64,000 bases of DNA from Takakia lepidozioides (lineage: Eukaryota; Plantae; Bryophyta), in the NCBI GenBank assembly GCA_030704615.1, contig CM060734.1:38006001-38070000 (forward strand), given 5' to 3'. The notes under the pieces were generated by a model. It saw nothing but the letters and a program-made list of their open reading frames with translations, had not been told where the DNA came from and did not search any database. Each line of letters opens with the position of its first letter. Position 1 is the first letter of the stretch. This document shows, one piece after another, positions 10,607 through 64,000 of the stretch. The position numbers were made by a program, and so were the translations under genes.

Positions 10607-10608
10607 CT

Positions 10609-16854: not shown

Positions 16855-16872
16855 AACTTCGTGCGGTGTTCG

Positions 16873-19364: not shown

Positions 19365-19832
19365 TGTGATCACATTCAATGATATGCTTCTCAAACTAAG
19401 CACTACTTACACACAGGTAATCTTGCAAGTGCTAACCCTCAACTCCTACCTTGCACTCACAGGTAAGAAATCATCTTTCTCGAGTGATAGAAAACCAACG
19501 AACACACTGTTTACACAAAACATGAAAACCAAACCATCACTCTTAGAAATAGTAGTCGAGCCAGGGGCACCCCAAGCTATGGGGACTCCACCCCACAACA
19601 ACCTGTACCCCTACATAAGCACACTCAAATCTAACCGCATGCAGGAGCTTGGTCGCGCAGGCTCAACTCGAGAAAGATGAGCCGCGCGACTGCCGCTCTC
19701 GTGAAGATAAGACGGACCAGGTGTCAAACTAAACTTGACACCTGATTTAACACTTGACCTAAATCCAAGTGTTAAATACAAATAACTAGTTTTATTCTAG
19801 CTGTTTTCACACTGTGCTTATGTAACTTGACA
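19365..19832 (-). repeat. LTR-like module related to the 5' end of the DNMT-Gypsy element
   Basis: Starts TGTCAAGTTA on the minus strand like 51092; shares GGCTCATCTTTCTCGAGTTGAGCCT and TATCACTCGAGAAAGATGA; no TSD seen. Confidence 0.65.
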
Positions 19833-30305: not shown

Positions 30306-30425
30306 GACGCAATTCCTACCTCACAAACAGGCATGCCACCACCTTACATCCCCAAGAGATACAGCAAGCACAGGAATTGACGAAATTGTGCGGACACAGT
30401 TTCAAAAGAGGGGGGGGGGAATAAA

Positions 30426-31305
30426 TGATAACGGGTTATGCTACGAGGGACAGACAACGAGGGTCACAACGGGACATACCAGGTAGTGAGGGACGTACAC
30501 TACCTGGGCCACAGGCAGAGACGGCTAAGTACACGGTACTTAGCCAATGGTGGGACAAGGGTACATTACCACGAGAGCAGTAGTGAGTAGTGTAGTAACC
30601 GTGAGCCGTGAACCACGATATTACACGGCCACGTTAGCATCGGCTTAACCAGTATAGAGAGTAGTGAACCGTTTACCACTATGGCTCACGACCACTGCAA
30701 CGAGCCACTTTTTAGCAAACATTTTAGGTTGCGTAGGCAGTTAGGCAAACGGTCATTAACGACCACAGACTGTAACGGCTCTTTTGAGCATAGTATAAAC
30801 AGACTGCACGCAACTTAGAAGGTTTGTAGTGCGGAGTGTGTAGTGTGTAGTGTGTAGTATGAGTATCAGGGATCAGTGTGTACTTCTGTGATGATGTGAG
30901 GAGCTCTGAAGTAAAGCCATGCTATTCGAAGTATCTCTGTGTAGAGTGAATGTGAGATGGAGAGAATGTGCATTATGAGAGAACGTGATATGGTGAGAAT
31001 GTGTATCATCTCAGAATAGTTCTTGTTTTGTCTTGACTACCCTCTGTTGTATGAACCCAGAGGCCTCAGTCCTTTTGACTAAAATCTTTTATATTAAGAG
31101 ACTGTAGATTGGGCTTAATCAATATGATTAAGCAGCCTACAGGAATATGGTTTCATATGACGTTCATGGTTTAGCTATCCTTAGAATGATTACTTCGTAA
31201 TCGTTTCTGAAAGCATACCGTCGGACAACCTCTGTTGCATGTCTTAGGAAATGGGCAGTAGTGTCAATAGTCTGTTTTGTCTAAGTCATAAACCAGCGGT
31301 TAACA
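30426..31305 (+). repeat. 3' LTR of family B
   Basis: TG..CA ends; inverted homologue at 49421-50279. Confidence 0.85.
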
Positions 31306-31319
31306 CATGTGTCAATGCG

Positions 31320-38600: not shown

Positions 38601-39130
38601 TCAAACAAGATGTCCCCATCAAACTCTGCTGGCACGTATTGAACCTGCTGCACACGAAGGGACTCCCAATCAACAAAACACAGCTCGCTCTTGCACCCAG
38701 GCACCCCTGCGAGGGTTTTTAATTTCGGAATGACACTCGTTATCTCCTGCAATTCGTCATCATCGAGTCTGCACTGGCGGAGGAATCTCAGAAACATCCT
38801 CCGAGGACGAGCCTGAAAGAGTCAGGAATGTAGTGGATGTGTTCACCTCTTGTTTCACATGAACTTGTGCCATTTTGCTGCACGACCGATGCTGCAGTGC
38901 CAGGGGTAACTACTGATCCTGCTGATTGTCTTCTCTCTTTTCCAAGGACCCGGTATGTGCCTGGAAGGACTCTCCACTTCCTTCCACACTCGCCAACCAA
39001 TGGTTTCTCCAAATGCCGAGAATCCAAATTTCCATCCTCGTCATACACCTCTTTTTGAACAAGCAGAGAATCCAATTCCAGAGAGAACACTATAACCAGC
39101 TCATCCTCATGGGTTTGCAGTTGTTCATGA
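35645..39130 (-). pseudogene. MULE transposase: GCM-like zinc domain, DDE core, SWIM finger
   Basis: DGHPW..C.GHCKC..C..C..HMGTHEHP; WLMFDH..GFMADSAQA..CLFHW..(intron)..NLAETVHN; CTC..CKH. Stops at 36991 and 36460 plus frameshifts; start uncertain. Confidence 0.85.
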
Positions 39131-40309: not shown

Positions 40310-42999
40310 TTGGAGGAAAGGGCCCGGTCGGTTCTACATACTCAGCCGGCTGACTATGGCATCACCATGACAGCACCGAAGGTCTCCTTCCAAACATACA
40401 TGAGGAAATTGAGAGCCATAGTGTGGCAATCTTGTTTCTTCAGAGAGTTCAACAAGGAGGGTGGCATCAGTCGAACAAATGAGCTTGACCAGCAAGAGAA
40501 AGGAGAGGAAGCCTGGACGATGCTTTTACAGGTGCGAAATGGACTGTGCTTCTTTGTTTTGCAAATATCACTCTCCTCCATCCAACCTGTTTTGGGCTGG
40601 CTCATATGAGTTTGCGGTGCCGCACACTCATTTGTTCTATCCGTGTGTAGTAACACCAAGGTGCACACCCTGGGCCCTTCAGGCTATTTTGTATGCGGTG
40701 GTTGCACTGTATTGTGCCGCATACTGTTTTAGGGGGTCTTCTTGATGTGGTGGAAAAGCTGAGAGACAATAATTGCATTGCATAATGAGGCTGTCTCTGT
40801 TCCTGCAGGTACATAAAGTTTGTTCTCATGGAAGAGAACTGCTTGGACAAACATCCTGATTTCGTGGACGTTTGGCTTCTCCTTGCTGACAACCAGACCA
40901 TGTTTACTACTGGGATCTTGCATGACTGGGGCCCAGACCATCTTTATGCTTGTGGTTGGTATTTGGATTGCCCTCCTTCTGCGACCCCAGCTCAGGAGGT
41001 ATCTTTGAGGAGAGAGAATGAGCGTATAGCAGCCATCGTCGCAGCAGCCGACCTCGGCATTCATGATAGAAATTTGCGGACTCTTGCAGAGAAGGAGCCT
41101 CCCGTTCAGGATACCCCGGGTAGAGGTAGAAAGGAAAATGCAAAGGATGTTGCTAGTGGTGTGGGGAAAGGAAGGGGTAGGGGGAAGGGGGCACAAGGGC
41201 AGGTAGGTGGGCAGGGAAGTGTTGCAGATACTGGCCCTGTGGTGCATGTCCAGCAGACTCCACCGCATGGTAGGGGATCCGGGAGAAAGAACAAGGGGGT
41301 GGTTGATCCCAAAGACCCGTACCATGCAGTGGAGCATCCCACGAGGGTCATTCGCCCTACCAAGTTGGAGATGGCCAACGTCGGGTTCCTTGCCATGATG
41401 GAGTCCAAGAAATCTGATTATAAGGGCGAGCCATCACCAGTGTGGGAGAGGATTGTGGAGTTCCTCGGCACGGTGCGTGTTGTCTTTTGCTTCTTTTCTG
41501 TTGTGGGCATGGATCGTTTCAATCCTCTTGAGCATTCCATTGTATTCTTGTTTGCAGGCTAAAATGACCAAATCCTAGGTGAACGGGAATGAGAAGCCAT
41601 ATGCAACTAAAGTCATCATCTTGGACATCCCTGATGGGTTGCCAGTACCGGATGTCCCTCCATCAGGTGCTTGTCCAGGTTGGAATGCTTTTGATGAGCG
41701 CTACTGACGGTGGGTTTTCTCCTTTTGCAATTTCTTTCTGTCCGATGCAGGTGTTTTGGTGCTCATCCAGTCCATCGACCTTCGCTGTCGCCGTGCACTT
41801 GCTAGCTATTTGAAAGCCTCCGGTATGAGGGTCGTGAAGACATGGAATTGTGTGAACAACATGTACCTGACGAAGGGGGATCGTCCGGGAGAGATGGTAA
41901 ATTTGCCTTCTTGTTCCTCTTCTTGGTGGTTCTCGGATGGAGTTGCATAGGTCGCTCAAACTCATATGTAGGGGCCTGGTTTTGAAGCTTCTTAGTTCCT
42001 TGTGGATGTCATGTTCGCAGACTCTTTTGTTTGAAGCTGTTTGTCTCGTCCGAGTGCATCCACCTATGACTCCGGCCGTCATTAGGGAGTTCGCCATCAC
42101 TCATGGGGGCAAGTTCATAGACAAGAGGACAGATCCTCCCACGGATGACATGCACCACAACTACGTCGACAGCAACGTGTGCTTGCGAAGGGGGAATGGG
42201 GTTCCTTGGAGAGGGGCGAGGGAGAGGAGCCCAGCTTTCATTCAAACGATTGTGGAGTGCTGCATCTACACAGACGCCAGAGTTCTGGATTTGACAATGG
42301 GCACAGGTTCGTCTCTTCAACATTCACATTTCATGAGGTTTGTTTGAGCTTGCACTTTCAACACTTCCCACCGTTCCAAATGTGTCTTAAATGTCTGTTT
42401 CCTTTATTCTATTCCACTGCAGGTGCTTCGTACCACGCTTGCAAGGCCAGTGCGCGACATCTCTTTGGGATTGAAGGGGATGCCGAGATTTACAAAAACC
42501 TCCTGATGGGTTTGGATGGACACACTCTCAAGTCCTTCCGAAGCCCCTTCCCGGTGATATTGATACAGGGGAGACTTTCGACAAAGAGCTGGACTCCGAC
42601 TTTGCCTGTGAGTAAGTTCAACCTGTGGATGCTTGCATTGTTGTTTCAATATCCAGAATCACTGTTCTTAAGGCAAAGTGTACATGGGAGACATCCTCTT
42701 CATTGGACTTGTGCATTGCATCATTGTGTTCAAAATGGGTTTTTGTCGACTTGTGCAGGAGTCCGCGTGCTTCCACTAACCCTCCAGGGCTATCACACCT
42801 ATTTGGACTTCTTTCAAGTCCTCCTCGGTCTTATGTGCTACCTGTCTATGCGGAGGCACTCGCAGCAAGCATGTCCGTTCATGGCACTCGCAGTCCACCC
42901 ATCGACGGCCGTGGTAGAAGACGTGGTGTTGGGGCCAGAGTCTTTGTGGATGACATAGCACAGGAGGTCGAGACTGATTCTGATGACTATGACACTTGA
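40310..42999 (+). pseudogene. Spliced beta-class (N4C/N6A-type) DNA methyltransferase-like gene
   Basis: In order: G/R/K-rich linker, VIILDIPDG (41612-41638, motif IV position), WNAF, DGVLVL..KTWN, FEAVCLVR, RERSPAFIQTIVECC..RVLDLTMGTG|ASYHACKASARHLFGIEGD (motifs X, I, II). GT-AG introns; in-frame TAG near 41576; start uncertain. Confidence 0.75.
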
Positions 43000-46188: not shown

Positions 46189-48150
46189 TCAGAGAAGAGG
46201 GGGCAGGATCACCCACCTTCGTGGGTACTTGATCCGACCGTCCATGCCATCAAATATCTGCCAAAGATCCACGGAGTAATAAAGTAAGACTATTTGAAGC
46301 TGCAAGAGTTGACAAATTTCAAAGGCAGCAAGAGTTGGTCTAGGAAAAGTATAAAGACAATCTATAGGAAGATACTAGGAACTAAACCCATCGTATCCGT
46401 ATCCACTTCACATATGGTTCTACCCAAAGACCCTCCGATCTCGGTAACAAGGAGTATGTTCCTTGGCTCACTGGCCCTGCCTACAGCTGGAACTACACGT
46501 AGGGCTTACATCCTATATCATGAAGTGTGTTACGATAACAGATTCTAGTCGTGCCATGAGGCTCTTTCAGGTAGAGCACTGAGAGGTGATTTTCATGCCT
46601 GATTTCGAAACGGAGCACGAGAGGAGATGGCGTTATAAATAATTTTCGAGCTGTAAATAATACAGAACTCGTCCATTCAACATTACCAAATACTGCATCG
46701 GCATGCATTGTGTATTCTTAGATATTAATGACAAGCAGGCCAAAAAGAGGTCAATGAACGAGGTGTGTAGATACCTTTTCTAAGCGTTTGTGCTTCTGAA
46801 GGGCCCAGAGAGTCATGACGTAAATTGACGCTGCGGCAAAGAGGTAACCTGTTAACGTCTGCGTGGCGAGGTTGAATCCAACCCACTGGTAGATCTCGGT
46901 TGTGTAGTTTGCACACGTCACATAGTTAAACAGGAAGCCTGATGGAATCTGGTAGCCTCCCTTTCCATCTGGTGGCCGCAAGTTCTTCAAGATGATGTGG
47001 CAGTAAAAGTTTGCAAGCTGGCTCACAATTGAGATTGCAAAACCCACATACATTTGCTTCTTGCCGACAGGGGTGTACAAAGGGTGGTTTACGAAGTAGG
47101 CTATACAGGCTCCATATCCCCAGTAATGGAAGCAGTTCCGGTACACATTGGCACGAGGAGAAGTTGCATGACTGAATCGATGGACAAAGAAGGTTTCGAA
47201 AATTCGTTTGGAGAAGTGAAAGCACCACGCATAGAGAGCATAAGTCTGGACAGGGTGAGTAATCTCGCGGGATGGGAGGCCAAAGAATGTATAAATCTCG
47301 GGGTAGTAATAGAAGATGGGGTACAATAGAAGTGGACCAACATATTCAAGGTAAAAAAGGGTGCTGTATGCCACTTGAGGTCCCAAGTCTTTGAAGACCA
47401 CCTGTGGGTTTGCATAGGTGAAACAGTCCTTCAGCTTCTTGTTGCCTTCCAGAACAGTAGGGCGCTTTTGGCTGGGATCGATCACAGGAAGAGTGAGCCG
47501 TTGTCGTTCTGGGTAGTACTTGTGATCTGTGATAAAAGCATCTTGCTTTTTAGCACCATATCTGCACTACTGTGTACAGTTTCTTGAATGAAACATGACT
47601 GAAACAACGAGAAGCCACAAATAGGAAAACTCAAGGTACCAAGGGACAAGGAAACAAAAAGCAGCCACTTAAAGCAGCCACTTAAAGCAGGCCCTTAAAG
47701 CAGCCACTTACTGCGCCTCTGAATGGCCTTCTTGAGATCAGACACTGTGCCCTGCAACTCATCAAAGCACAAAGTGTAATGTAAGAGAGAAGATTGTCTG
47801 GAGGAAACAAGATCTTTTTTTACCTAACCAGATCAGCCTCACATGTCAGTCTTTCATCTCCTTAAAGCCAAAGATAAAGTTAAGAACATGGTTTATCTAC
47901 AACCAAGAATCCTGAAACGTTCCTACAGCCTTACACGGCACATGTGTACGCTTCAGACCAGCTATCCTTGTCAAATTTATTCTGCAGCAAGGGCCCGTAG
48001 TTGTTAAGAAGGACTTTGGAAGGGAATAAATACCAAATTGACACCGTTCCCTTTCCTCCGTCCAACGTAAGGATTTTCGACCGCTTTCCCTTGGCGGGCG
48101 CATGTCTGCACTCGTCTTCTATATGCCGCTTCTGTTAAATAAATCATCAT
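46189..48150 (-). CDS. ECR: Very-long-chain trans-2,3-enoyl-CoA reductase (ECR/CER10/TSC13 family), 4 exons
   Basis: Exons 47751-47712 ([13 protein letters not shown]), 47526-46775 ([44 protein letters not shown]), 46257-46189 ([17 protein letters not shown]), GT-AG and in phase. First exon 48150-48034 is tentative. Confidence 0.92.
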
Positions 48151-49420
48151 CTCTCTCCGTCTCTCTCCTCAGAACGTCTCGTCTATGCCTCTCATACAAG
48201 TGAAAACTGAAGGGTCGTTCCTGTCACCCATTAGTCTTGCTCAGGGTGCAGGCTGACGCACCCACACCATTGCACCAGGTGCAATATTCATGACAGAAAT
48301 AACTCCTTATAAGAGTTGTATATAAATGCTGCAGCGGATCGAGTTCTCTCACCAAAGAGGAAAAGAGGAACGACTACGAGTCCCCTTGTTCACAAACGGA
48401 TTTGGTGCTCTAGACCACAAACAGTGGAATATCATCCTCCCATATCTTAATAGCCATCATATCAGGCGTCATTGCAAAGGGAGTGCGCACCGGATGCATG
48501 ACTAAATGCAGACATATGCATGTATGATTGTCGCAGTTTTGGAGATTAATTATATGGGAGTCCTGCCAAGTCGTCAACCTTCAGCCATCACTACTGCATC
48601 TCTCTGCATTTACAATCTGCCATACAAGAAACAGGACGTGGGAAGAACGCCCTTCCTGGCTGGCCGACATCCTCGAAAACACCCATAGGTCATTACAATG
48701 TGAAAAGAGCAGTGAGAAACTCCTTAAACCAAACGAGCAGAGCGAATAATGTAGGGAGAAGGGAGGCACACATCATCGGACACTTCAACACCGCCTTTGA
48801 TGATCTCCTTGCCATCGCGGCCCACCACTTGTATCCACCGGGCCCGCTCCGCTATCTTCATCGACAACCTTCGCACACACGGCTGCGGACACAAAAGATG
48901 ACAATGAACCACTCCAAACCCACCCGCAGCACGCTCACCAAACACCAATAACCCCCAGGAACACCTCCTAGAAACAGGCCACAAACACCAAAAAAGTTGA
49001 CGCCTAGGAGGAAGCGTAAATTGCGAACTAGGGCACTCGCCGCGTGGAAGGCGATTACCCACTTCATGGAGAGAGCACGACGGCACGTGGATGAAACTAG
49101 GATGGAAATGATCCCACATGCAATGATTAACAGGGAAGACAATCAATTCCTACGTCATATCTGCGCCAGAAGAGATCCTGGCCGTTGAAAACGTCAGATC
49201 CGTCCTCTCATACATTACCCCATAGAGGCCCACAAAATTTGTACCCCTGGCCCTGGCCACCTTTTTATTCATTACTAAAGCTTTGTTAAAATCAACAGAA
49301 CTTAACCGTTCCATCATGTTTTAAGCTATATCCGTTACCTCCACCTCAAATTTATGCTAATTTCCGCGTTGTTATCCCCATGTAATGATAGAGAGCTTGC
49401 GGGATATTATCGCGGGAGAG

Positions 49421-51091
49421 TGTTAACCACTTGTTTATGACTTAGACAAAATAGACTTTCAACTCTACAGCCCATTTCCCAAGACATGCAACAGAGGTTG
49501 TACGACGGTATGCCTTCTGAAACGATTACAGATTAATCGTTTGAAAGATAGCTAAACCCCGGTAGTCGGTAGTCGTATGAATCAACATCTCTGCAGGTTG
49601 CTTAATCCTATTAATTATGTCCAATCCGTAGTCTCATCAGCAAAAACGGTCTTAGCCGGAAAGGCTGGAGTCTCTTTGTTCATACAGTCATACAGTATTC
49701 AAAACAAACAAGATCTATTCTGCGATGATACACATTCTCACCATCTCACGTTCTCTCATAATGCACATTCTCTCCATCTCACACTCACTCTATTCACAGA
49801 GATACTTGGAATAGCATGGCTTTACTTCAGAGTTCATCTCATCATAACATAAGTACACATCGAATCACTCTGAGTCCACTGGATACACACTGATCACCGA
49901 TACCTTCTAAGTTGCTTGCAGCCCTTTTATACTATGCTCGAAAGAGCCGTTACAGCCTACAGTCATTACTGACCGTTGCCTAACTGCCTACGCAACCTAA
50001 AGGGTTTGCCAAAAAGTGGCTCGTGATATTGGTCGTGACTTGTGTACCATAGTGGTACACGGTCCACGGCCCTTCACTACTTCTTCTATTAGTAAAGCCT
50101 ATGCTACCATGGTCGTGTGATATCGTGGTTCACGGCCCATGGCTGCTACACTACCTACTACTGCTCCCGTGGTAGTGTACCCTTGTTCCGCCGTTTGCTA
50201 AGTGTCGCGCACTTAGCATTTCCTGCCCGTGACTCTCGCTGCCCGGCCCTCGTAGTTGTGTCATACTTAGCCGTTATCATTTATCCCCCCCCTCTCTTTT
50301 GAAATTGTGTCCGCACAATTTCGTCAGTTCAAGGGTTTGTTGTGTCTCTTGTACTTTAGCCACTCATAATCCTGCTTGTATGGCATGATTTGGAAATCAT
50401 CCACTGCTACTGAAGTTGATGCCACCAGAACACTTGGTAATGGTTTACCTCCTGAGTAGATGGCCCTGTTGTGGCCTATATCGGTGCCTGTTGACTTGGT
50501 GGTGGTTGTGTTGTTGGTGGTGTTGGTGTTGGTGTGATTGTATTGGTGCTTCTTGTTCATGGTCTTGCTCCTCTTGGTCGTCCTCATTCGTGAGCTCCTC
50601 TTGTTCTTGAATTGGTGGCAGGAATTCCTCGTGAATGTCTATCACCAATTTCGCCAACTGACACTTCATTTGTTTTATCATTGCCTTGTTGAGTTTCTTC
50701 ATTTCTAGTTCACTTCCTTCATTGCCAAGGCTGCGTCTGCTACATCCAGCCCTGCTTGCAATGTCAGCTTCTTTAGCTGCTGCTTCCATTCATGTTCGTT
50801 GTGTAATGCAATTTCTCTCTCTGTGTTAGCTGTGAATAGCCTACTTTCTGCATTTTCCCTTTCTCTCAACAGTACAGTATTGCATGAGAGCCACTTGGTT
50901 CCCTGTTCTTTGGCAGTCCTCAGCTGCCCCTTGAGTGTATCCACATGTCCATTAAGTGTCTGCACCTGTCCTGTGAGTGTTTTCACCTCTATCTCCGTTT
51001 TCCGAGATCGCTCTCTTTCTGCATCGAGGTCGGCTTGGACATTGCATGTTTCCCACCTCTGTTCCCACTCATCTCGGCGTTCTATTAAAGT
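49421..51091 (-). mobile_element. Family B Gypsy 3' end (LTR 49421-50279, PPT, internally deleted accessory ORF)
   Basis: Reverse-complement homologue of 28760-29530 and 30375-31305. Confidence 0.88.
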
Positions 51092-52879
51092 TGTCAAGTT
51101 ATTTTACCACTAGTGTGAAACTAGCTAGGAAATAGCTAGGAAATAGCTAGCTTTTACATATTGACATTTGGGATTGGCCCAAGTGTCAATCTAGGGGTCA
51201 AGGCAGATTTAGGCCCTGGAGTGGTTATCTTCACAGCAAGCGCGGGAGGCTCATCTTTCTCGAGTTGAGCCTCACCGCGCCTAGCTATGGAGCCGTAGTA
51301 TGGATTCCCCATGGCGTGGGGTGCACTTGGCTTGACTTGTATTTGAGTGATGAGGTTATATATGCATGAGTTTCTGCTTTAGCTTTGTGAGCTCGCATGA
51401 GCTTGCGCTTGTATTCTTCTTCTTTATCACTCGAGAAAGATGAGCTCGTATCTGTGAGTGCCAGATACGAGTTAGTTGTAGCACTTGTGGTTTTTGCTTG
51501 AGAATGATAGAAACCAGGTTGTTATACAAGGAGCACCGTGGAGCTCTTGGTTGTTAGAAGCGGAGGCGATGTGGGTTACGAGGTGGTAGACCTTGGCATT
51601 CGATCTTCAGCTTCAGAGATGAAAGCACCATGCTGCAGGTAATTCCAGAGCACCTTGATGGTTTCAAATTGTGTACATGCATGAGCAAGCACGATTGGGA
51701 AGAGGACCAGTCAAAAGCAGGTTATAGTGGCTTTGGTGGCAAAGCTAAGAACTGGACTTGGGAATGCGAGCTTTCATTGTGTGAAGGATTGCAAGACCAA
51801 GCGAAAGGGCTGATTTGGCTTGGGGCAATCAGTGCACTTTGTGGAGTATGTTGAGATTGGGTTTCAATCTCGAGCTTCAACATTGAGAGGGCTCTTGTCA
51901 TGGCAAGAGCAGGGTTGGAATAGGAGCTAAGAGGTGCGGCAAGGCCATGGAATGTGCACCTAGGGTTTCAGAGCTTGGAAAAAGAGCTCTTGCACCACAA
52001 GAGGAGTGTCTTGTGGCTGGAAATGTAAGCCTTAGGGTTTCAGGAGCTTGGCAAAGGCTGTGGAGTGCTTAGTCTTGTCTTAGAGAGCATGAAGGAGCCA
52101 AGGAGCCAAGATAGGGGGCTGATACCTCTTGTGTGAAGAGGTTGCATGTGTGGAGCATGTATTTAGCTCATTGAAGCTTCCATCTTCAAGCTTGGAGGGC
52201 AAGCAAGGAAGAGGGAAGGGCTGACTTCCCTTATGTGAGGGCAATGCATGTGTGGAGTATGCTTTCAGCCTGTTGAAGGCTTGTACTTTCAAGTTTGGGA
52301 GTGCAAGAAAGGAAGCAAAGGGGCTGATTCTCTTGTGGTGAGAGTGGGGCATGTGTGGAGCATGCCTTTAGTCCATTGGGCTTTTGTTTTCAAGCTTTAG
52401 AGAACTAGAAGAGAAGGTAAGGGGCTGATCTGCTCTTATGTGACAGTCCGACACTTGTAGAGCGTGTTCTGAGTTGGGGTTTCAATCTCAAGCCTAGATA
52501 GAGCGTGGCTCTTGAAGTGGCAGGTATAGGGGGCTGGAATAGGCTCTAAGACAGATGCTATGGCCAAGGAAAGCGCTTGAATGAGTGCTCACAAGGACTG
52601 GAAACCAGCAAGGCTTGGTTGTTTGCCATTGAGTTTAGTGACGTGTTTGGGGAGTCTAAGTGAGAAAGAAGGCTTGGTTTGTGGCAACCATTTTCCTCAT
52701 GGATTAGGGCTACTATTGGTGGTCTGTGGGAGCCGAAAGAGCAAGAATATCTTGTTGATTTCTTCACAGCCTCCATAGCTCGGTGCAAAGAAGCCTAGAG
52801 TCCAAGAGACACAAACCCTAGCTTGGCGTGGCTAAACCCCTTGGAGAAATGGCTAAACTGTCATGAGTGGCCATGGATG

Positions 52880-53330
52880 GGGCTGTGACGGGCTGTGACA
52901 GGCTGTGGCATGTGGCGGGCTGTGATAGGCTGTGCACTGTGGCCTATGGGGCTGTGAGGGGCTGTGATAGGCTGTGGCCTTTGGGGCTGTGACCCCTGTG
53001 ACCTGTGTAGGGCTGTGACAGGCTGTGCCCTGTGGCCTGTGGGGCTGTGACGGGCTGTGAGGGGCTGTGCCCTGTGGCCTATGGGGCTGTGAGGGGCTGT
53101 GATAGGCTGTGGCCTTTGGGGCTGTGACCCCTGTGACCTGTGTAGGGATGTGACAGGCTGTGATGGGCTATGAGGGGCTGTGACAGGCTGTACCCTGTAG
53201 CCTGTGGGGCTGTGATGGGCTGTGAGGGGCTGTGACAGGCTATGGCCTTTGGGGCTGTGACCCCTGTGACCTATGTAGGGCTGTGACAGGCTGTGGCATG
53301 TGTGGGGCTGTGACGGCTGTGACCAGTGAT
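52880..53330. repeat. Degenerate minisatellite of GGCTGTG(A)-based ~10-bp units
   Basis: Dozens of GGCTGTGA/GGCTGTGG units with higher-order blocks, upstream of gag. Confidence 0.9.
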
Positions 53331-54084
53331 CTGTGTGGGCCTGTGCTGGTTTGTGGTGGCCCGTGTTGATCTATGGACGGCCTGTGCTGACTCGTGGAGG
53401 CACTGGTGGACTGCCTAAGGACTGGCATGTCTTGAAGGCCGAATTTTGAAGCTCGTGGAGGGCGGTTTGAGGAGTCCCTTCATGATATTTCCATGGTCAT
53501 GCAAGTGAGGGAAGAGAGGAGAAAAAGAGTGTTGGGATGAGGGTATGCTGGGGTTAGGCATTGCTTTAGCTTCTCTTCCTCGTAGTTTTCCACCCTCTCA
53601 TTAGGCCAAGACCTTTCTATAGGTGGAGGCAAGAGTCAGTGCGGGTTTGGGCTGGGGTATCCTTGCAGGAGCAACACGGTGGAGTTGTTTTTGGTATGGG
53701 GGAGTTGTCGTTCTGATTTCTTGTGTTTGGATCCCCTCCATACTTGCATGCTTGACTGTGCGCCATGTTAGTTTTGTGTGGGCGCTTGTTTTTATAGGTG
53801 ATTGGTCCGGATTTGATCACCGGCCAGTCCTAGAGCATGTTGTCGATGGTGAGGCTGGGGTGATGACCAGTTATACCATCATTGTTTCTCCTGTGGTGAG
53901 GTTGGAGGTGATGACCAGCCAACCATATGAGTGCTTGCGGTGGATGCAGGTGCAGGTGTAGGCTATGTTAGGAACCTAGTATTCCAAACCATAAGCCGCA
54001 ACAGGTTCTCTACCCAGTTACCTTGTGGAGAGGGGGTTAGGGACATGTTCATGACCGGTTGAGTGACAGTTTGTCAACACGGAG

Positions 54085-56700
54085 GTGCCACTAGTTGCTG
54101 GGGACAGTGCCGGTTCGAGCACTAGCGATACTAGTGGGTACACGAGACGAGGTGTGCAGTTTAGGCCACCTTCACCTCCCGTGTCTTCTACGGAAGGTTC
54201 TGATTCGGATTGTGAATCAGGAGGACTCACACCGGCAGTGCAAGTTGTTTCCTTGCCATTGTTGTGGGACACAATGGAGGAGATCTATGGAGCTACCAAT
54301 GGGCCACAAAGGTACTCTGGGGCACTGGGCACCATCGACTTGGATGATTTTATCCAAGAGTTTGATAGTTGGTGTGATTTGCAGCAAATGCGCAATCTAC
54401 AACTATTTACGCCTTTCATGGCATGGAAGGGGCTGTTTCAACACCTTGAGGGGCCACCTATGGATGATTACCATGAGTTCAGGCAGAGGCATGAGGTTGA
54501 GATCGAGGAGTGGAGGATATACTGGTCACCCGACTATGTCTCCATCACTAGGGGCACTAGAGCCACGAGGGCAGTGGCTACACCTGCCGCTGCACCGGCA
54601 GCTTCAACAAGCAGCAGTGGGACTAGTGATACCGTAGCTACGACGTCCACCCAAGCTACTGCTGCACCAGCACCAGTGGCGGTGCCTGCCTTCAACCCTG
54701 TTGTGGAGTTCTTCGAAGAGTTAAGAGGGAACTACCAAGGGATGAGGACAGAGAAGTTGCGGAGCTTGCAAGAGTTCCAACGGAAGCCGACTGAGAGCTT
54801 GAGGGAGGCTTTCACTCGCATGAGGCGCTTGATAAATGTAACCCAAGGGGTTACGGAAGCTCAGGCAGTCCAATTCTGGTATGGGTATTGGACAAGGAGC
54901 TGAGGAGAAGGGTGCGGGATGCAACTCTCCTACAATCGGCCCAACCCACCTCAGCAAATGTGTTTTGCTGGCAGAGCGGATAGAGCTCAACATGGTGGAG
55001 GAACGAGTGGTCATGGTGGGATTTGCTAAGGAGACACCACGGGATAGTGGTGCTCCTAGCCAACCACTACCTCAACGTGTTCAAGGCAACAAGGGGGCTC
55101 AGGTGAAGCTCAGGGAAGGGCAGAGAGGACCTCAGATGCAGGGGTCTCTCCCTTCATTTGCAGGCCAACAACGGGCGGATGTGGTGTGTTGGACATGTGG
55201 AGGACCCCACGTCAAGAAGGATTGTCCAGAGGGAGGCAAAGGGCCGGCACATGCACAGCCTGCACAGTTGCAGTGTGGGCATTGTGGCAAGCACGGGCAT
55301 GGAGAGGCCCAATGTTATGGTTTGCATCCTGAGTTGCGCCCAGGCCAGTTCCAAGGGAACAATGGTGGCCGGGGGCGAGGGGGAGCAGCCTAGAGAGGAC
55401 GAGGTGGCTAGGCACGGGGTGTAGGCCAAGGGCAAGCTCAACATGGCCAAGGACGCGGAGGTCAGGGTGTTGACTAAGGCATGGCCAACCGGCTTCAGCA
55501 GCCAGAGCATAGGTTCGCTGCCATGGCTACAGCTCAGGTGGTACCAGCTCCAAGGCCGGATGGTCCACCTCCTGTTCCTGAGGGAGGAGATATGGGAGGC
55601 ATGGGATTCATGTGCGGAGCAGCACTACCACTAGTGCAGGTGGAGTCTGCTGCAGCCGTGACTCGATGAGCAGCACGAGTTCCTGAGCCACGAGGTGCAG
55701 AGGTGGAGTTGGATCCACAACGTGGGGAGGCAAGCCGTCAGGCTAGGCTCCCTCAGTCATTCACATTGGCGGAGACAGCGTCGACGCCATCCATGGCACC
55801 TAGTTCTCGCCCAACTGTTACCGAGGCGGAGTTTACTATGCCATTGGGGAGAGCTACACGGGTAGCACCACTACCTAGTGTTGCCAAGGCTACGGTAGCT
55901 AGTGTGCTGCTGGGAGCGCCACATCTGTGTGTCAGGCTCCATTGTTCTCGGCTACCATGATTGTAACGCCGGGGGTAAGACCAGCTGAGGTGTTCAGGCT
56001 GGCAGCTACACTCTGTGAGAGTGGGGAGGTTACTTCATCTTCTGCGGAGGTAGTGGGAGGTATAGTGCCGGAGGGATCCTCGGATTTGAGGGTCAAGACT
56101 GCCACGGCGGCGCCATGGCAAGCTGCAGCTGGCAGGTTGATGGAGCTGCCAGCTAGGCCAGCCATTGAGCGCGCCATGGTGACACGTGGAGTTGTCATGT
56201 TAGACAACCAGGATGACATTTTCTGTTTGAGTGGACCGGCAGGCAAGAGGTACCAGCCACTATGGGTCTTGTTGGACTCGGGAGCTCAGTCATTGATGCC
56301 GGGTAGAGCTGCTATTGCAGGCTTGGGCCTCACGGAGGCGGATATGGAGCCTTGTCCTTTCCAGATACAGACGTCTCTGGTAGGATCGGAGCAGGCTCGG
56401 AGCATGACACGGCGTGAGTTGGCTATCAGACTACAGTCGGATCACCCTACAGATGGCTCAGTGATGCGAGCCAAGGCCATTGTGACAGACGCGGTCTCGT
56501 ACGATGTCCTGGTTGGTGGGGCAGTGTTGTACCCCATGGGCTTCACCCTGGATTTTTGGGAGAAGTCAACTTCCTTAAGGCCTGGATGGCAGTCAGGGGA
56601 GGGCCAGCGTGTGCAGCTCCCTGTGACATTCATAGGAGGAGTTGCGGTTGCCCAGCGAGGCAGGATACCGACACTAGTAGCATTCACAGCTGCAGTGAAT
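54085..56700 (+). pseudogene. gag and aspartic protease of the DNMT-Gypsy
   Basis: YSG..DLDDFIQEF..FQRKPTESLRE; CWTCGGPHVKKDC; CGHCGKHGHGEAQC; VLLDSGAQ..YDVLVGG; frameshifts and stops. Confidence 0.85.
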
Positions 56701-56988
56701 TGACCCGGAGAGTTGCTTGAGGGCAACGCTCATTCAGAGGACGTGTCACCTCCGGGAGAGCAGGATGACATGCATGGTATGGCGGAGTTGCCTGCCATGA
56801 TTGCTCAGACTCCATTGTGAGGCACGAGTAAGGATTTGCAGCAGGTTGTTGATCGACGGGTGCAACAAGCCTGGGTAGAGGCTTTTGTATCATCAGGAGA
56901 GGATGAGAGTGCGGGGATTGCACCAGGACCACCTCAGTTGTCTCCATTGGATACCACACCTATTGTGTGGCAGTATCCGGATGAAGGC

Positions 56989-57935
56989 ATTTGTCTTCTG
57001 GACTTGTTTGGCGGGATCAGCACCGGATTGGCTGCTGTGTTACAGGTAGGTGTATGAGTTTGGCGTTACCTGTATGTGGAGAGGGATGAGACTGCACGAC
57101 ACGTTTCACTTTGTCATGTTGCTCAGTTGGTGCAGCAGTACTTTGAGTTGTTGCCAGTGTCTGCAGTTCGTGGATATCAGCAGGTCTTGCCAGCAGACAT
57201 TTCGTTGCTAGGGGCGCAGGATTTGGAGCGGGTTGGCTCCAATGATCTAGTAGTGGCAGGTTGGCCCTGCCAAGAGCATTCATCAGCCGGCATGGCAATG
57301 GATTGCGAGACTCGAGGTCGGGTCTGTTTTGGGAGATGGTGCGGGTTTTACGCCACTTGCAGCTTCATCAAGCTGTATCTCCAACATACATCTTGGAGAA
57401 TGTGCCACTGATGGGCGATTCTTGGGCCAGGGTGATGGTCAGTGTGCATCAAGTCCGGTCGTGGCTTGGGTCAGTAGTGTTGCTAGATGCAGCTATAGTG
57501 GGGTCACGGGCTCATCGTCCACGGCTATGGTGGACTAACTTGATGTCACCCGCACTGCTTAAGCGTGCATTTGATGGGGTGCAGCAGCCAGCACACCTCA
57601 CAGTGGATAGCATTTTGGACACAGGGAGGCAGTCTCAGCGTGTGAGACACGATGACCGTTCGCCTTTGGCAGTGGTCAACAAGATGGGTCAACCACGAGC
57701 AGCATTACCTACACTGCTCAGCTTCCCAGGATCGCATGCTTTCCGGGATAGTGGACCTGGCCTCTTGTGATGCTCAGATGCAGCAGTTAGTGGAGCCTAA
57801 TGCTGACGAGCGTGAGCGGGCAATGAATTTTACCACTAGTACCACGGCAGGGCCATCTCTTTCTGAGGCATCACGTCGTCAGGTATTGGGGCAAGCAATG
57901 GATCTCAATTGCTTGACCTGGATTATCAGCTTGGC
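56989..57935 (+). pseudogene. DNMT3-like C5-cytosine methyltransferase domain inside pol
   Basis: Motif I LDLFGG (57001), II VERD, IV GWPCQ (57259-57273), V SRSGLF, VI ENV (57396), VIII AHRPRLWWTN, IX ERERAMNF, X LGQAM; TGA at 57055 and two frameshifts. Confidence 0.92.
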
Positions 57936-58339
57936 TATGGCTGAGCAACGCAGAGTGCGGAGTACACTTCCCTCGATGGTCTCTCTGCCTACCGAGATGG
58001 TACAGGTAGTGAGTGGGGGCGAGCATGTGAGGACCACAGGGTGCAGGCATCCATGGCACACGTGGGAGGTGCTCGAGGTTCAGAGGGAGTTGGCAGCCAG
58101 GGCGACGGTGATGGATGAGATTGGGGATTTTTCTCGGGTTGAGGAAGTCCTCGAGGATGAGATGATGGGGCAGGATGAGGCCTTGTCATTGACTGAGCAG
58201 GCAGGGAGTACTGCTCAAGAGGTTGCAACATAGCAACCACTGGACGCGTCTTCTACATCTAAGCCCACTGGACTTAAGGTTGCAGTTACGGAGGACAATT
58301 GGGAGCCTGACATTGGACCCATTGTCACCGGAGGAGAGA

Positions 58340-59280
58340 GACGACGTATATGGCGGTTCCTAAGGGCTTACAGGAATTGCTTTGCCTTCGGCTTGAAGGA
58401 CTTGGGAGCACTGAAGGGTCAAGAGATTTGTATTGAGTTGGCCACTGATACGCCAATCTTTCGGAGACCCTATAGATACAGTGACATAGAGAGGTCTTTG
58501 ATTCAGATGAGGACTCAAGATCTCTGGGAGGCTGGTTTGGTGGAGCTCTCTGGTGGAGAGTATACTTCAGCCACAGTGATGCCAGCCAAGAAGGATGTCT
58601 ATGGCAATTGGACGGAGAGACGTATGTGCGGTGATTACCGGCCTGTAAATCGTCAGACCAAGTCCGATAAGTATGCCATGCCAACCACGGAGGAGATCTT
58701 TGATGCCATTGGGCATGCTAAGGTCTTTAGCACTTTGGATTTACGATCCGGATATCACTAGTTGCTGGTGATGGTGGAGCACTTCTCCAAGTGGATTGAG
58801 TTGGTTCCATTGCCTAACAATGCTAGTGAGGGGGCTGAATATGCATTCTTGGATCGTGTGCTTAGCCGATTCGGTGCTCTAGCTGAGGTACTCATGGACC
58901 AAGGGAGAGAGTTCTTGAAGGAGTTTCAGGCTTTGTGTGATAAAACCTTGATAGACCACCGCACCACTTCTCGGGATCATCTTGAGGCCGATGGCTTGGC
59001 AGAGAGAGTTGTTCAGACGGTGAAGAGGGGTTTGCGCAAGTACGGCTTGCAGAAGGGACACCTAGGAGATTGGGATCTTCAAGTACCTTGGTTAGTTATG
59101 GGCTACAGGTTCAGCAAGCAAGCATCACTTGCCTCCTTCTCACCATATTTCATTCTCTTTGGCCGAGAGCCGGATTTGCCTGCAGCCATTCGTAAGGACA
59201 CTGCTCAAGTCCTTAACCTTGACGATCTAGACGTGTGGGTACGTGCATGTGGTCAGCGTGCAGAGTTGTTCAAGAAAGTT
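58340..59280 (+). pseudogene. RT N-terminal half joined to integrase core
   Basis: RRPYR..RMCGDYRPVN..FSTLDLRSGYH* then VEHFSKW..DQGREF..ADGLAERVVQ; YxDD, RNase H and HHCC absent. Confidence 0.88.
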
Positions 59281-59460
59281 GGGTGTTGCTTCATTGGTCT
59301 GCGGCTGGTCCCCTCCTTCTAGCTGTTGATTCTCTCTTTCTCTGTGTAGTGTGGAATCAACGTGGAATCAGCCGTTGAGTTGAAAATGTTTTCTGCCATT
59401 GCACTCATGGTTGCTTCGTTGATCCGGGCTCTTTTTGCAAGTGCGCCCTCTTCTTCCAAT
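59281..59460 (-). mobile_element. Further fragment of the family B accessory ORF
   Basis: Reverse complement matches about 28180-28347 (CTTGCAAAAAGAGCCCGGATCAAC..). Confidence 0.8.
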
Positions 59461-61815
59461 TATTGTCTTTCTTCCTCTTGACCTGCTGCCGTCTCGCTTC
59501 TGTAGTGTGAATGCAGGGAGTAAAAATCTCAAGTTTGTGTTTGGCATCAGGTTTCGGCACTACTACAAAGGGAGTACCCTTCGTGCTAATGAAGGGGAGG
59601 AATTGACCATAACTTGAGGTAATTCCATGGAAGGACTATGCTATTTATCTGCCAAGAACAAAATATGGCTAAGTTATGACATGCACCTTTTTCATCCCTA
59701 GGATGAATGATTTTCATCCATGATGTTGAACCCTAGAAGCGGGATGTGAAATTCGAAGGGGAAGAGTGCGTGGATCTTTTCGCAGCTGCTGCAGTGGTGT
59801 TGGCAGCACAGGATATCTGAGAAGGTTCCACCTACGCAAAGGGTATCAGCTTGCTTTTAAGAGAAATGTTAAGAACTCCTGCTTGGCTTTCTGTGCAAGA
59901 AGAAGCGGTGCCGCCTTCTTCGTAAGCAATGATCAAACCTGAGGGATCGGGTTTGTGATAAGGGCGGTGCACCACTGCTGTCGCCATGGTATTTGTGAGC
60001 ACATTAATGAGGAGATGGAGTGGCTCAGCAGGTGTTGGGGGATGAGAAATGCAGGCTGGTGTGTATTATCGCCTCAGGTTGTCAGTGATCAAATCTTGTA
60101 GCTGCTGTCTGTTTTTGAGCTGTAGGACCAGATCACTTTGTAAGGGAATCAGCTTGCCTTAAAGAGTGACGTTGAGGGATCTGGCTTGGCTTTCTGTGCA
60201 AGAGGAAGCGGTGCCGCCTTCTGGTGTGTATGGCGCTTAAGCTATCTATAAATAAGTTATGTATCTGCTCTCTGTCTTAAGGGCTGTAGGACCAGATCAC
60301 CTCATAGGGAGGAAATGCACATGTAGAAGGATAGGGTAGAGGTTGGCAGGCACAAGGATGTGCCAGCAGCTGAAGCAGAGCCGTCATGCCTTAATGAGGA
60401 CTGGAATCACGATAAGAAGAAACGTCGGAGATGGCTGACGAGGGAGAGGATAAGGTGCCTTCTTGACAGGCAGACCCACCACTTCAAGGAGTATAAGACA
60501 GATAAGTTCGAGGAGTGTACCCCCCCCTTTTGGTTTTTGGTTGCTTAGAAATCGCTTTGTGAAGTTTGAACTGTCTCTTGTATGTAGTAAGAGACACTGA
60601 CATGTGAGGAAGAAAAAGAGCTTTGTAAATGGAATGAAGACACTGGACTTCAAACCAGGATGGGCTGGAGATGGATGCACCTGCTATTACATTGTACAGT
60701 AGGAAAATGAATGGAAACAGGGTAGACTCGTTGCTGGGACAGAATGGTTACTGTTGTTGTATTCTTGTTCCTTGTTTCAACGTCATGAGCTTGTACAAAC
60801 AATCTAGCCTGGGATGTTGACACATTGCAGCCAATGTGGAACTAGCTTAGTAGGTAGAGGAAACCAGAGAGGGTTAGATAGAACTGTTTGGAAACAACAA
60901 GAAGGGATGATGTGGATGGGGCAGAAAAACCAGCATCTGTTTGGGTTTGGATCTGATTCTCAGAGTGCTCTCAGCCCATGAACCACTGAGGTTCACAGCT
61001 GATGGGAAAAAGAGAGCTGTCAGGGTGTGTAAATTGAGACCTGTTGAAGGGTTGAGAGCTGTCTTGGGCAATGGTTATACCTGGGAAAAGTGGAGTGTGA
61101 AGCATCTGTCATTGGCAAGAGAGGGACTGATAAAAGGGCTGATTATATCTTGTGTGACCAAGGTTGATTTCAATGCTGGGTGCACTGGATGCTTGGCTGA
61201 ATGCGCATTGCATTGCATCATAGGCATGTTACAGTGGAAAGAGTGAGGAACCCACTTATCCTGAAAGAAAGAGAGAGGGAGAGAGAAAAGGACACAAGGG
61301 AGAGAGTTGACCAGCAAGAGGTTATGATGAGGAATGGATGATTGGGGAGGTAAGATAAAGAAAGCATGAACCCATGAAGGGCCAAACTGGTGGGCCTGCA
61401 AACTCATGGCAGATCTGCGTTGCCGCCTTCCAAATCGTGATCTTGTTACAAAGGGGATTCCACGTATTGTTGACCAAGAGAGCTGCCCACAAGGGCAGTG
61501 GTCATCACTGACGTAGGGCTGGTTGCATCACTGAAGACCGCATGGTAACATGGCTGGTGCAGTGTATCAGGGAAAGGATGTCGTGTAGAAGTAGAACCAC
61601 GGGTGAAAACAATACAGACTCCCCATCCATGTCTTCTCTTCCGCTGCGGCGTGGATGAGGATTGTGCGAACTCTGATCACGAAGGACCTGATGGAAACCC
61701 ACACCGAGTGACGATGGTTGGATCAGCTGGAATGAGAGCTCCTTTCCTTCCCTCCGATTGACCTAGGGAAGAGCACAACTAGACTTGCACAGAAGGGGAT
61801 TCACGCCCCTTCTTT

Positions 61816-61827
61816 TGGTATCAGAGC
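61816..61827 (+). promoter_or_regulatory. Primer binding site (tRNA-iMet)
   Basis: TGGTATCAGAGC upstream of a gag ORF; preceded by hairpin AGAAGGGG/CCCCTTCT rather than a CA LTR end. Confidence 0.8.
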
Positions 61828-61888
61828 CTTAGGATGTTAAATCTTGATTTCTACTAGCTAGGGATCTTGACTGGTATTGGATGGTTTG

Positions 61889-62200
61889 ATGGCAGGAAGA
61901 GACCACACACTGATTCCTGATGAACCAAGCATTGGAGATGTGCTGATTTGCTTCAGCAGACGCACACCAAATGCACACGCAGACCCTTGTTTGTACTTCT
62001 TCAACCCTGCTTGGAGAATAGCCAATGGTGATTTATGTCTTAGAGTGATTCATACTGGTGGAAGAACAACCATAGCACTTTGGATAAGAGAGTTAGGAAG
62101 GTGGGTGAAGATAAATACCATGGCACGAGAGGTGACATGGGGAGGTAGAGTAGAGATGTTGCGAAATGGACAGTGGGAGTGGTATAGAGGTCAACATTAA
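61889..62200 (+). CDS. Small ORF between PBS and gag, unknown function
   Basis: Uninterrupted 103-aa W/R/G-rich ORF filling most of the leader; no recognised motif. Confidence 0.35.
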   Translation: MAGRDHTLIPDEPSIGDVLICFSRRTPNAHADPCLYFFNPAWRIANGDLCLRVIHTGGRTTIALWIRELGRWVKINTMAREVTWGGRVEMLRNGQWEWYRGQH

Positions 62201-62271
62201 GGGAGTTGCGGAAAAATTAGAGTCAGAATTAGGTGTTGAAACAGTTTGAACTTTGATTAGAGAATAGAAGG

Positions 62272-64000
62272 ATGACCAGTCCAACCAGCATAGATGCGCC
62301 TTATCATGGTAGGAATAGTGAGGATGTAAATGACTGGCTGGAGAGAATTCAGATGGAGGCAGATGTCAGGGATTTGAATGAGGACAAGACTTTCAAGGTA
62401 GCAAGGCTCAACCTGAGAGCCAAGGCTGATGAATGGTACCGTAAACAAAACCCTAGACCAAACAACTGGGTGGACTTCAGGGCAGCAATTTCAGCCAAGT
62501 TTGGTATCGTTGACTTGGCAGAAATTAGGCTAAGAATGGATACCATTAAACAGGAGAGTAGACAAAGGGTTCAAACATACTTCGATAGGTTGAACCGGTT
62601 ATTTATAAGAAGTGGGGCGTCTGATTTGGAACAGAGACGTAGATTTGCAGCAGGTTTGAGACCAGAAATAGCAAGAGTAATGCTGGGCAGGCGCTTCCTT
62701 GATGTAGAGGAAGCACTTGACACAGCCATTGAGATTGAAAGGGGCCTGGGAAAGTTAGGGGAAATACCTCTAGAACCATTGGAAGGAGATGATACAGATG
62801 AGTCAGTTGTGTTTGTCAACCCTGTGGACAGAAGACTTGATCAGCTGAACACTACCCTACAGAAGTACTTTGATAGGGGACCAGTCATAGGAGAAAGCTC
62901 GGGATCTAGAACACCACCTCGTGTTCGCCTTTGTAATGTTTGTCACAAAGAAGGTCACATAGCTGCATATTGTCCTGAAGGAAGAACCCCAGCTAAGTGT
63001 GACAAATGTCACCGGTTCGGGCATTCCACGGAAATGTGTGGTGTGAGATGCAACTTTTGCAAGCTACTCGGGCATACGGAGAGTGAGTGCAGTAGAAAAC
63101 TCGACCAAACTATGATGGGAACTCCGGGAACTAACTTTGTAGACGTGTTCTATGATGATGAGGATGATGTACTCGCAGAGATGACAGATCTGATGTCACG
63201 AAATAGTATCAATGAAGTCAGACTTCCAAGGACACGCATACCTGTCCAGAGTCCGATTGTTGAACCTACAGGGTCACCAGAAAGGAATAGTGAGAGCAGT
63301 GAACAGCCAAGCAAGACCAAGAGTGAAATCTACCCAAAGAACAATTTCAAGAATGCTATAGAAGGAGGTACGAAATCCAGAATCTTGAACCACTTCTACA
63401 AAGGGAGAATATCGTTGTCGCCCATGGACCTGATCATGACTGTGCCCGGAGAGCTAGACAAATTGAAAGGGCTGGTCAAAGTGGTGGAAAGAGCAATGGT
63501 ACAACAAAGGGAGACAACTCACAGTGTAGAAGTTGTGAAGGATGTACCAAGGCCTTTGTACTCAGCACACGCTGAGCCCACGATCTCGTATGCTTATACT
63601 GGTAAGGTTAAAGCGCTTCATGTAATGATTACAATGGGAGATTACCAAGTATTAGGCCAGATTGACACTGGTGCCATGCTTTCTGTAATATCAGCTAGTA
63701 CAGTCAGGGATCTGGGTTTGATGGGATCTGTCATTACTAGTAAGGATGTGAATTACAGAGTAGCCTCAGGTGCTCTTGAGACTGCAATGGGCAGACTTGA
63801 GGACATCAAGGTCAAAGTAGGAGAACTAACCAATCGTTTGTCCTTTATGGTGGTGAACACGGATACATATCACATGCTGCTAGGATTGGACTTTCTCAAA
63901 AAGTTTGGCGCTGTAGTGGACACCGAAGCTGAAACAATTCGCGTACGCTATGGGCCAGGAAAGGATTTTGCTCACTTCCCTTTGCACACCATCAATTATA
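62272..64000 (+). CDS. Ty3/Gypsy gag-protease polyprotein, open to the window end
   Basis: No stop seen from ATG 62272: YHGRNSEDVNDWL gag, three CCHC knuckles, protease QIDTGA..MLLGLDFL. Confidence 0.9.
   Translation, partial: MTSPTSIDAPYHGRNSEDVNDWLERIQMEADVRDLNEDKTFKVARLNLRAKADEWYRKQNPRPNNWVDFRAAISAKFGIVDLAEIRLRMDTIKQESRQRVQTYFDRLNRLFIRSGASDLEQRRRFAAGLRPEIARVMLGRRFLDVEEALDTAIEIERGLGKLGEIPLEPLEGDDTDESVVFVNPVDRRLDQLNTTLQKYFDRGPVIGESSGSRTPPRVRLCNVCHKEGHIAAYCPEGRTPAKCDKCHRFGHSTEMCGVRCNFCKLLGHTESECSRKLDQTMMGTPGTNFVDVFYDDEDDVLAEMTDLMSRNSINEVRLPRTRIPVQSPIVEPTGSPERNSESSEQPSKTKSEIYPKNNFKNAIEGGTKSRILNHFYKGRISLSPMDLIMTVPGELDKLKGLVKVVERAMVQQRETTHSVEVVKDVPRPLYSAHAEPTISYAYTGKVKALHVMITMGDYQVLGQIDTGAMLSVISASTVRDLGLMGSVITSKDVNYRVASGALETAMGRLEDIKVKVGELTNRLSFMVVNTDTYHMLLGLDFLKKFGAVVDTEAETIRVRYGPGKDFAHFPLHTINY

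Follow-up and report, generated by a model that had tools for sequence, protein, structure and literature searches.

Retrotransposons that carry a cytosine methyltransferase of the Dnmt3 type were described as KnitGypsy-Dnmt3 in the alga Klebsormidium nitens and SymbioDIRS-Dnmt3 in Symbiodinium (de Mendoza et al. 2018, PMC5890265). Why such elements keep the enzyme has been an open question since 2018, and these known hosts are hard to work with. We analysed an element of this kind that lies within positions 38,006,001 to 38,070,000 of contig CM060734.1 (assembly GCA_030704615.1); "the window" refers to this whole stretch of 64,000 nucleotides. The element is a dead member of a moss family of Gypsy retrotransposons that is abundant and in which a DNMT3-like domain lies between protease (PR) and reverse transcriptase (RT). 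This family is a bryophyte variant within the KnitGypsy-Dnmt3 clade and is widespread in bryophytes.

According to the available parts of PMC5890265, KnitGypsy-Dnmt3 shares with the window's family the Gypsy domains, an intronless and non-permuted Dnmt3-like domain, purifying selection and DIRS-like repeats in the order A-internal-B-A-B (Fig. 4c legend). The two differ in host, which is the alga K. nitens in one case and a moss in the other. The same parts of that paper place the DNMT in the open reading frame (ORF) of RT and RNase H, whereas in the window's family the DNMT shares their frame with a conserved stop in between, and they do not contain the PHD finger, the TG...CA ends or the 4-bp target-site duplications (TSDs) of the window's family. 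The copy number of the window's family also looks far higher. SymbioDIRS-Dnmt3, as far as the available text describes it, is likewise a retrotransposon Dnmt3 with A-coding-B-A-B repeats and two domain orders. However, it belongs to the DIRS class and has a tyrosine recombinase, whereas the window's family has a Gypsy RT, a DDE integrase and target duplications. It is a demonstrated CG methylator in yeast. The host enzymes DNMT3 (PpDNMT3a/b; Yaari et al. 2019, PMC6453930) and DRM2 have a DNMT3-type catalytic domain as well, but host DNMT3 is a cellular gene with DUF3444 in the available part of that paper; DRM is permuted, and neither is in a retrotransposon.

Literature searches, with subscription journals and transposable-element databases outside their scope, did not return any publication on the family in land plants. 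The accessible part of the species table in PMC5890265 has a row for Physcomitrella, and neither Marchantia nor Sphagnum was matched there. The accessible part of PMC12344493, with reference to the 2018 paper, speaks of DNMT3s of retrotransposons in "streptophytes and dinoflagellates", and the one supplement of it that was searched had no match for the family; the accessible parts of PMC6453930 and PMC10952607 do not mention it.

In a three-frame translation of 53900-59700, the plus strand encodes gag, protease, C5-methyltransferase, the N-terminal half of RT and the integrase core, in this order. The element consists of the following parts.

51092..54273, plus strand: 5′ end and long 5′ leader, beginning TGTCA (probable start)
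54274..55390, plus strand: gag with two CCHC zinc knuckles (55187-55225 and 55274-55315), from Pfam and Marchantia identity
55918..56700, plus strand: spacer and aspartic protease with LLDSGA (DSG at 56275-56283; PF13650, E 0.074)
56959..57933, plus strand: DNMT3-like C5 cytosine methyltransferase with motifs I-X, from motifs, profile and model
58231..58239, plus strand: conserved stop and its 3′ context, TAG CAA CCA, between DNMT and RT; predicted readthrough site
58300..58758, plus strand: N-terminal half of RT, ending at an internal deletion (71% identity to Marchantia MARPO_0091s0058)
58762..59279, plus strand: integrase core, cut at 59279 (PF00665, E 1.2e-9)

This arrangement fits the Ty3/Gypsy domain order, gag-PR-(DNMT)-RT-integrase (IN), with RNase H (RH) deleted, and agrees with the Gypsy identity given in an earlier reading of this DNA (the original prediction). 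The full order gag-PR-RT-RNase H-integrase is present in the relatives P0189, P0346, P0347 and P0355. The gag region matched PF03732 (E 2.6e-4, under the cut-off) and zf-CCHC (E 0.044) and was 54% identical to the N-terminus of Marchantia Mp_8g17980; the protease region was colinear with PR of the relatives. The original prediction had placed the start at 54085, but the 5′ end of the element probably lies well upstream, near 51092. The TGTCA at this position resembles the TGTCATG with which repeat A of the relatives starts, one X5 contig piece begins at 51092, the match to the flanking element stops at 51069, and across 50671-51604 the summed contig depth of run X3 climbs from ~2,500 to over 200,000. 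The leader has two tandem-repeat tracts (52116-52466 and 52873-53323), the second of which, GCTGTG-rich and built of 10-bp units, recurs at 8220-8315 and 26054-26161 of the window. A non-coding stretch at 19426-19833 on the minus strand is 69-83% like the first 400 bp of the element and may be a solo repeat from a related family.

The methyltransferase contains motif I (LDLFGGISTG, ~56998-57027), motif II (E at 57079), motif IV (WPCQ, catalytic Cys at 57268-57270), motif V, motif VI (ENV, 57396-57404), motif VIII (RAHRPRLWW, 57507-57533), motif IX (ERERAMNF, 57808-57831) and motif X (RRQVLGQAM, 57874-57900). Their order is canonical and non-permuted, and no intron is needed, since relatives are colinear across the whole domain; both features, and the position between protease and RT, had been predicted correctly. 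The window's own pieces matched Pfam PF00145 weakly (E 0.006-0.014, under the curated cut-off). Of 709 candidates, 28 proved to be relatives of the window's unbroken 159-aa piece (57291-57767) at E<=1e-3, with 44-72% identity and a best E of 2e-64, so the resemblance is not due to chance. A profile of nine relatives matched 52 PDB sequences, with DNMT3A first (E 6e-16), followed by DNMT3C/3B, DRM and bacterial methyltransferases; the permuted DRM2 covered only profile positions 4-133. DNMT3A was also the best match of the structure model of a natural relative, P0126 (mean pLDDT 59). By motifs I-X and by fold, the domain belongs to the DNMT3 family, and its activity is predicted.

The host was placed by a gene outside the element.

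46207..48861, minus strand: host very-long-chain enoyl-CoA reductase (ECR) gene, from homology and tree

The closest named matches of ECR were from Sphagnum (77%), Physcomitrium (74%) and liverworts (69-72%). A tree of 41 rows placed it, on its own branch, in a clade of 12 rows that also includes Sphagnum, Physcomitrium and Ceratodon (support 98/81) and that was separate from the liverwort and vascular-plant rows. The host is a moss, presumably one other than these three. The original prediction had raised an embryophyte host and named this gene as the check, which bore it out; a charophyte host was ruled out by the same tree. Its suggestion that methyltransferase-bearing retrotransposons extend to land plants holds for the moss host, but the system is not a new one, as the element belongs to the KnitGypsy-Dnmt3 clade. 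The ECR gene is intact and flanked by transposon clusters, and its exon joints are seen spliced in X5 and X6 contigs. The observed/expected ratio of CpG was 0.51 in the element and 0.61 in the ECR exon, two close values that carry no information.

The methyltransferase of the window had been called complete, which it is not: the domain is interrupted by a TGA (57055), by a first frame break near 57288-57291 and, at 57768, by a second one together with a TGA. Upstream, the element has stops at 55391, 55409, 55475, 55667, 56701 and 56818, and frame breaks near 54885 and 54962 (both in gag) and 55917. About 1.6 kb is deleted between the N-terminal half of RT and the integrase core, with loss of the C-terminal half of RT, RNase H and the integrase N-terminus; the edges of this deletion are ~1,620 nt apart in the relatives L006, L012, L015, L016 and L034. 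The 3′ end is also lost, and the integrase C-terminus, the PHD finger and the 3′ repeats are absent from this copy. At 59279, X1 contigs show loose ends, and the flanking element picks up again at 59280. The repeat that hosts the nested element occupies 49420-51069 and 59280-59456 and has a second copy on the other strand at 28183-31306 (75-80% identity), relative to which ~400 bp of it is also gone. It has coiled-coil ORFs, and two ORFs of the second copy had no Pfam match.

Sister copies were followed in contigs of runs X1-X4, which are from one sample, using the best-supported rows. These contigs depart from the window's copy in the stop at 56701 and in four out of five frame breaks, show loose ends at the 57768 break and run on past 59279. 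The breaks therefore look private to the window's copy. In run X3, the summed depth was 102,000-289,000 over the coding region as against 47-91 over ECR. This shows a very abundant family, of roughly thousands of copies at face value, though contig depth is no copy number. X6 holds some element-like contigs, which DNA carry-over could yield at such abundance, and they were not used as evidence of expression.

The order PR then DNMT was found in Marchantia, Calypogeia (by alignment), Sphagnum fallax, Closterium, Mesostigma and K. nitens, whose protein GAQ93235.1 is 30-55% identical to the window's pieces. A profile search of 1.84 billion representatives gave 430 clusters at E<=1e-30 (150 listed). 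Two domain orders predominate among the 226 proteins with a domain match: PR-DNMT-RT-RH-IN, whose named members are streptophytes, and RT-RH-DNMT-IN-PHD, whose named members are the chlorophytes Chromochloris, Haematococcus and Scenedesmus. The latter lineage is large (P0170-P0178, P0186, P0246, P0365 and ~80 more proteins), and no mention of it was found in the accessible parts of the related literature. No vascular-plant name appeared among the relatives in word-limited searches in which names were looked up for 30 proteins and most were nameless; this does not prove absence. None of the 41 pattern matches obtained in viral_contigs was confirmed as a related locus.

The DNMT tree (FastTree, midpoint root) had 172 rows after removal of 19 near-duplicates and of spans <255 or >400 aa. 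In it, a branch with support 97 has all 36 rows of the PR-DNMT-RT order, Klebsormidium's included, on the same side. This branch separates the two domain orders, which are also separate on the RT tree (62 rows, quick mode), where 46 rows with the DNMT after RNase H are together (98). The window groups with liverwort and moss rows on both trees (12 rows, support 100, for DNMT; 6 rows, 99, for RT). The outgroups of both trees are inadequate; the only non-DNMT Gypsy in the RT tree has a long branch and was placed among the rows with the DNMT before RT. We take the K. nitens protein P0256, from its PR-methyltransferase order, to be a probable KnitGypsy copy; it shares the window's side of the branch with support 97. 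Trees with Klebsormidium elements and host enzymes had been proposed as a check; the window's DNMT groups with that of K. nitens, and host DNMT3 is absent from the DNMT tree.

Between subfamilies, ~157 codons of the DNMT gave a nonsynonymous divergence (dN) of 0.24-0.29 and a proportion of synonymous differences (pS) of 0.69-0.82, which is saturated; the dN of RT was close (0.16-0.24). For the window's own domain against relatives, dN was 0.24-0.28, again at saturated synonymous sites. The DNMT evolves under purifying selection. PR, DNMT and RT were colinear in 29 of 43 metagenome loci and in many proteins, and the family has the DNMT as a fixed component. These loci had been retrieved by their DNMT, so sisters without it could not appear among them.

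The same 29 loci contain both the DNMT end and the RT start. In all of them and in the window, a stop, TAG (20 cases) or TAA (10), followed by CAA-C or a one-base variant, occurs at the matching place. Likely duplicate pairs in this count are L021/L022, L028/L029 and L039/L041. The linkers of three subfamilies differ in sequence and length (303, 345 and 366 nt) and retain the stop context; that of the main locus group matches Sphagnum fallax protein P0147. Like P0130, which ends at the stop, six liverwort proteins (four from Marchantia, two from Calypogeia) terminate 78-81 aa past the DNMT, and this suggests the same stop in liverworts. The Marchantia gene models P0127, P0128 and P0137 join DNMT and RT with shortened linkers and were not counted against the stop. 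An unbroken PR-DNMT-RT frame had been anticipated in intact paralogues, and the DNMT had been treated as a domain of Pol; in the window's branch, close paralogues offer no such frame and the DNMT cannot simply be counted as part of Pol, because the conserved stop separates it from RT in 29 of 29 loci, and the DNMT would end the Gag-PR protein.

In-frame UAG codons upstream of a polymerase are also found in tobacco mosaic virus (TMV), with the readthrough consensus UAG-CAR-YYA, and in murine leukaemia virus (MuLV) gag-pol, according to the accessible part of Firth et al. 2011 (PMC3159437). The exact consensus is present in the window (UAG-CAA-CCA), L018, L039 and L041. The stop of MuLV gag-pol comes after Gag, whereas that of the window's family comes after PR and DNMT, with readthrough as a prediction. 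A literature search linking the CARYYA motif with retrotransposons found nothing. From this arrangement we infer that Gag-PR-DNMT would be the main product and that RT-RH-IN-PHD would be made by readthrough.

The ends of the family can be seen in relatives of the window's copy, which retains only the 5′ end. The layout A-internal-B-A-B is complete in L019 (9,320 bp) and L040 and is seen at the 3′ end of L034 and partly in L006. The outer ends of full-length relatives are TG...CA, and L016 starts with TC. The elements with both ends, L019, L035, L040 and L016, have 4-bp target duplications (AATC/AATC, TACA/TACA, TGTG/TGTG and AACA/AATA), exact in three of the four and matching at 3 of 4 positions in the fourth. 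Two complete, identical terminal copies of a long terminal repeat (LTR) are absent, as the repeats are split; the element is a Gypsy by its proteins and non-canonical by its ends. With its rve integrase and 4-bp TSD, it is not of the tyrosine-recombinase (DIRS) class.

A purine-rich tract, similar to a polypurine tract (PPT), precedes the first B, the A-B junction reads as two joined LTR ends, and the internal B-A junction is CA-NN-TG in L006 and L034 and CA-NN-TA in L019 and L040. These features fit an LTR of B+A and a two-LTR circle that is cut at its internal site. We give about an even chance to the explanation that integrase cuts the two-LTR circle at internal CA-NN-TG instead of using linear cDNA ends. 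To our knowledge, integration by cutting circular cDNA at an internal site is not standard for LTR elements. The mirror layout A-B-A-internal-B, which a symmetric two-LTR circle predicts, was seen at none of the 8 independent 5′ ends, and a search of 4 leaders with five patterns for a primer-binding site gave no match. Both results count against the circle and leave room for a DIRS/PAT-like route, in which the internal B-A junction would template both termini and integrase would insert a linear A-internal-B-A-B through its TG...CA ends. The layout equals that of split-repeat DIRS elements in the available part of PMC5890265. This route has, in our view, somewhat less than an even chance: the PPT-like tract lies before the first B, the A-B junction resembles an end-to-end join of B-A LTRs, and there are A-internal-B copies with a matching TSD (L016 and L035), the product expected of a one-LTR circle. 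One flank is common to L016 and L034, so that collapse or recombination accounts for at least one A-internal-B copy.

A PHD finger follows the integrase in 9 loci. A tryptophan two residues before the zinc-binding histidine marks PHD fingers that read H3K4me3. This finger lacks it and may read unmodified H3.

The explanation that we favour, by a little over an even chance, is that this abundant moss Gypsy of the KnitGypsy-Dnmt3 clade makes Gag-PR-DNMT in bulk and RT and integrase by readthrough, and that packaged DNMT methylates the element's own cDNA. With the layout Gag-PR-DNMT-[stop]-RT-RH-IN-PHD, the DNMT would be produced at Gag levels, and RT and integrase would come from occasional readthrough of the conserved stop. 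The DNMT would be packaged in the particle, freed there by the protease, and would methylate the new double-stranded cDNA, at CG by analogy with SymbioDIRS-Dnmt3. The pre-marked copy might then pass as host DNA, or be protected before and during integration, and the PHD finger might guide it to chromatin. Methylation of cDNA by the element's own DNMT, as in the original prediction, had already been proposed in PMC5890265, whose available part also reports that SymbioDIRS-Dnmt3 methylates CG de novo in yeast.

Several observations weigh against this explanation. KnitGypsy-Dnmt3 gave no methylation in yeast, a result its authors call inconclusive (PMC5890265, available part). Motif IV was EC in 81 of 190 DNMT domains and PC in 82. 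The commonest context of the stop, CAA-CCC (22 of 30), is not strict YYA, and 10 of the 30 stops are TAA. A stem downstream of the stop had weak support (z -0.45 to -2.72; window -0.62), with a compensatory change in 4 of 23 pairs. In more distant lineages, DNMT and RT are in one frame (P0148, P0189, P0346, P0347, P0355 and Closterium P0349), so the stop is not required throughout the clade.

Alternatively, the DNMT might act in the nucleus on host chromatin or integrated copies, either for self-limiting silencing or for marking of sites together with the PHD-bearing integrase. Domains of the writer (DNMT) and reader (PHD) types co-occur in both domain orders, and a host-benefit, rate-limiting role is raised in the accessible part of PMC5890265. 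We consider a nuclear role unlikely, because the DNMT ends the Gag-PR frame in the window's branch, pointing to co-packaging in the capsid, and the chlorophyte DNMT, between RNase H and integrase, would also be a particle protein.

It is less likely still that the domain persists as a module for nucleic-acid binding, RNA modification or structure and not as an active DNA 5-methylcytosine enzyme, even though the yeast result, the motif IV variants and the 40 of 190 domains without ENV/ENT by a simple pattern fit this. The catalytic Cys, ENV and RxR are retained in bryophyte members, dN is near that of RT, and the predicted fold matches DNMT3A; human DNMT3B failed the same yeast test too (PMC5890265, available part). 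That the DNMT is a separate insertion or captured passenger in the window's copy alone is very improbable and was rejected for the family: retrieval by DNMT would hide sisters without it and one weak X2 joint skips 55716-57900, but the colinear, selected domain occupies the same site from Mesostigma and Klebsormidium to liverworts and mosses, and sister contigs cover it just as they cover gag, PR and RT.

A wider version of the packaging explanation, which we put forward tentatively and regard as doubtful when taken whole, is an ancient green-lineage Gypsy clade, reaching from chlorophytes to liverworts and mosses, with its own epigenetic writer and reader. In its bryophyte members a leaky stop would load DNMT3 into each particle at capsid level, so that new copies would be methylated on arrival, the PHD finger would steer the integrase, and circular cDNA would be cut at CA-NN-TG; with thousands of copies, the element's enzyme might also shape the moss methylome.

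The family ranges from Mesostigma to bryophytes and has a relative in chlorophytes, which makes it questionable that the domain was acquired in the K. nitens lineage specifically. This spread suggests that it was acquired long ago, or transferred, within green plants and is not a Klebsormidium oddity. In Marchantia polymorpha, for which genetics and methylation mutants are available, close relatives carry the annotation "hypothetical protein" (Mp_8g17980, Mp_4g09160, Mp_2g26090 and others), so that the reason for keeping the enzyme becomes testable. Copies of the family can raise the apparent number of DNMT3s in bryophyte genomes, and standard LTR finders will likely miss their split ends.

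Other mobile elements occur in the window. Cys/His-rich ORFs at 16819-17988 (plus strand), 23073-23585 (minus), 35764-38821 (minus) and 40789-42347 (plus) had no Pfam match at E<=0.01 and are presumably pieces of MULE/SWIM-type DNA transposons, which they resemble. At 61818-64000 on the plus strand there is another Gypsy, with an open gag-protease frame from 62257 and, at its start, TGGTATCAGAGC, which we take to be its primer site. A young chromodomain Gypsy at 9882-16784 (plus strand) has long gag and pol ORFs, no DNMT, and LTRs that are 100% identical over 300-nt blocks; a third, more diverged copy of its LTR lies near 22207-22862.

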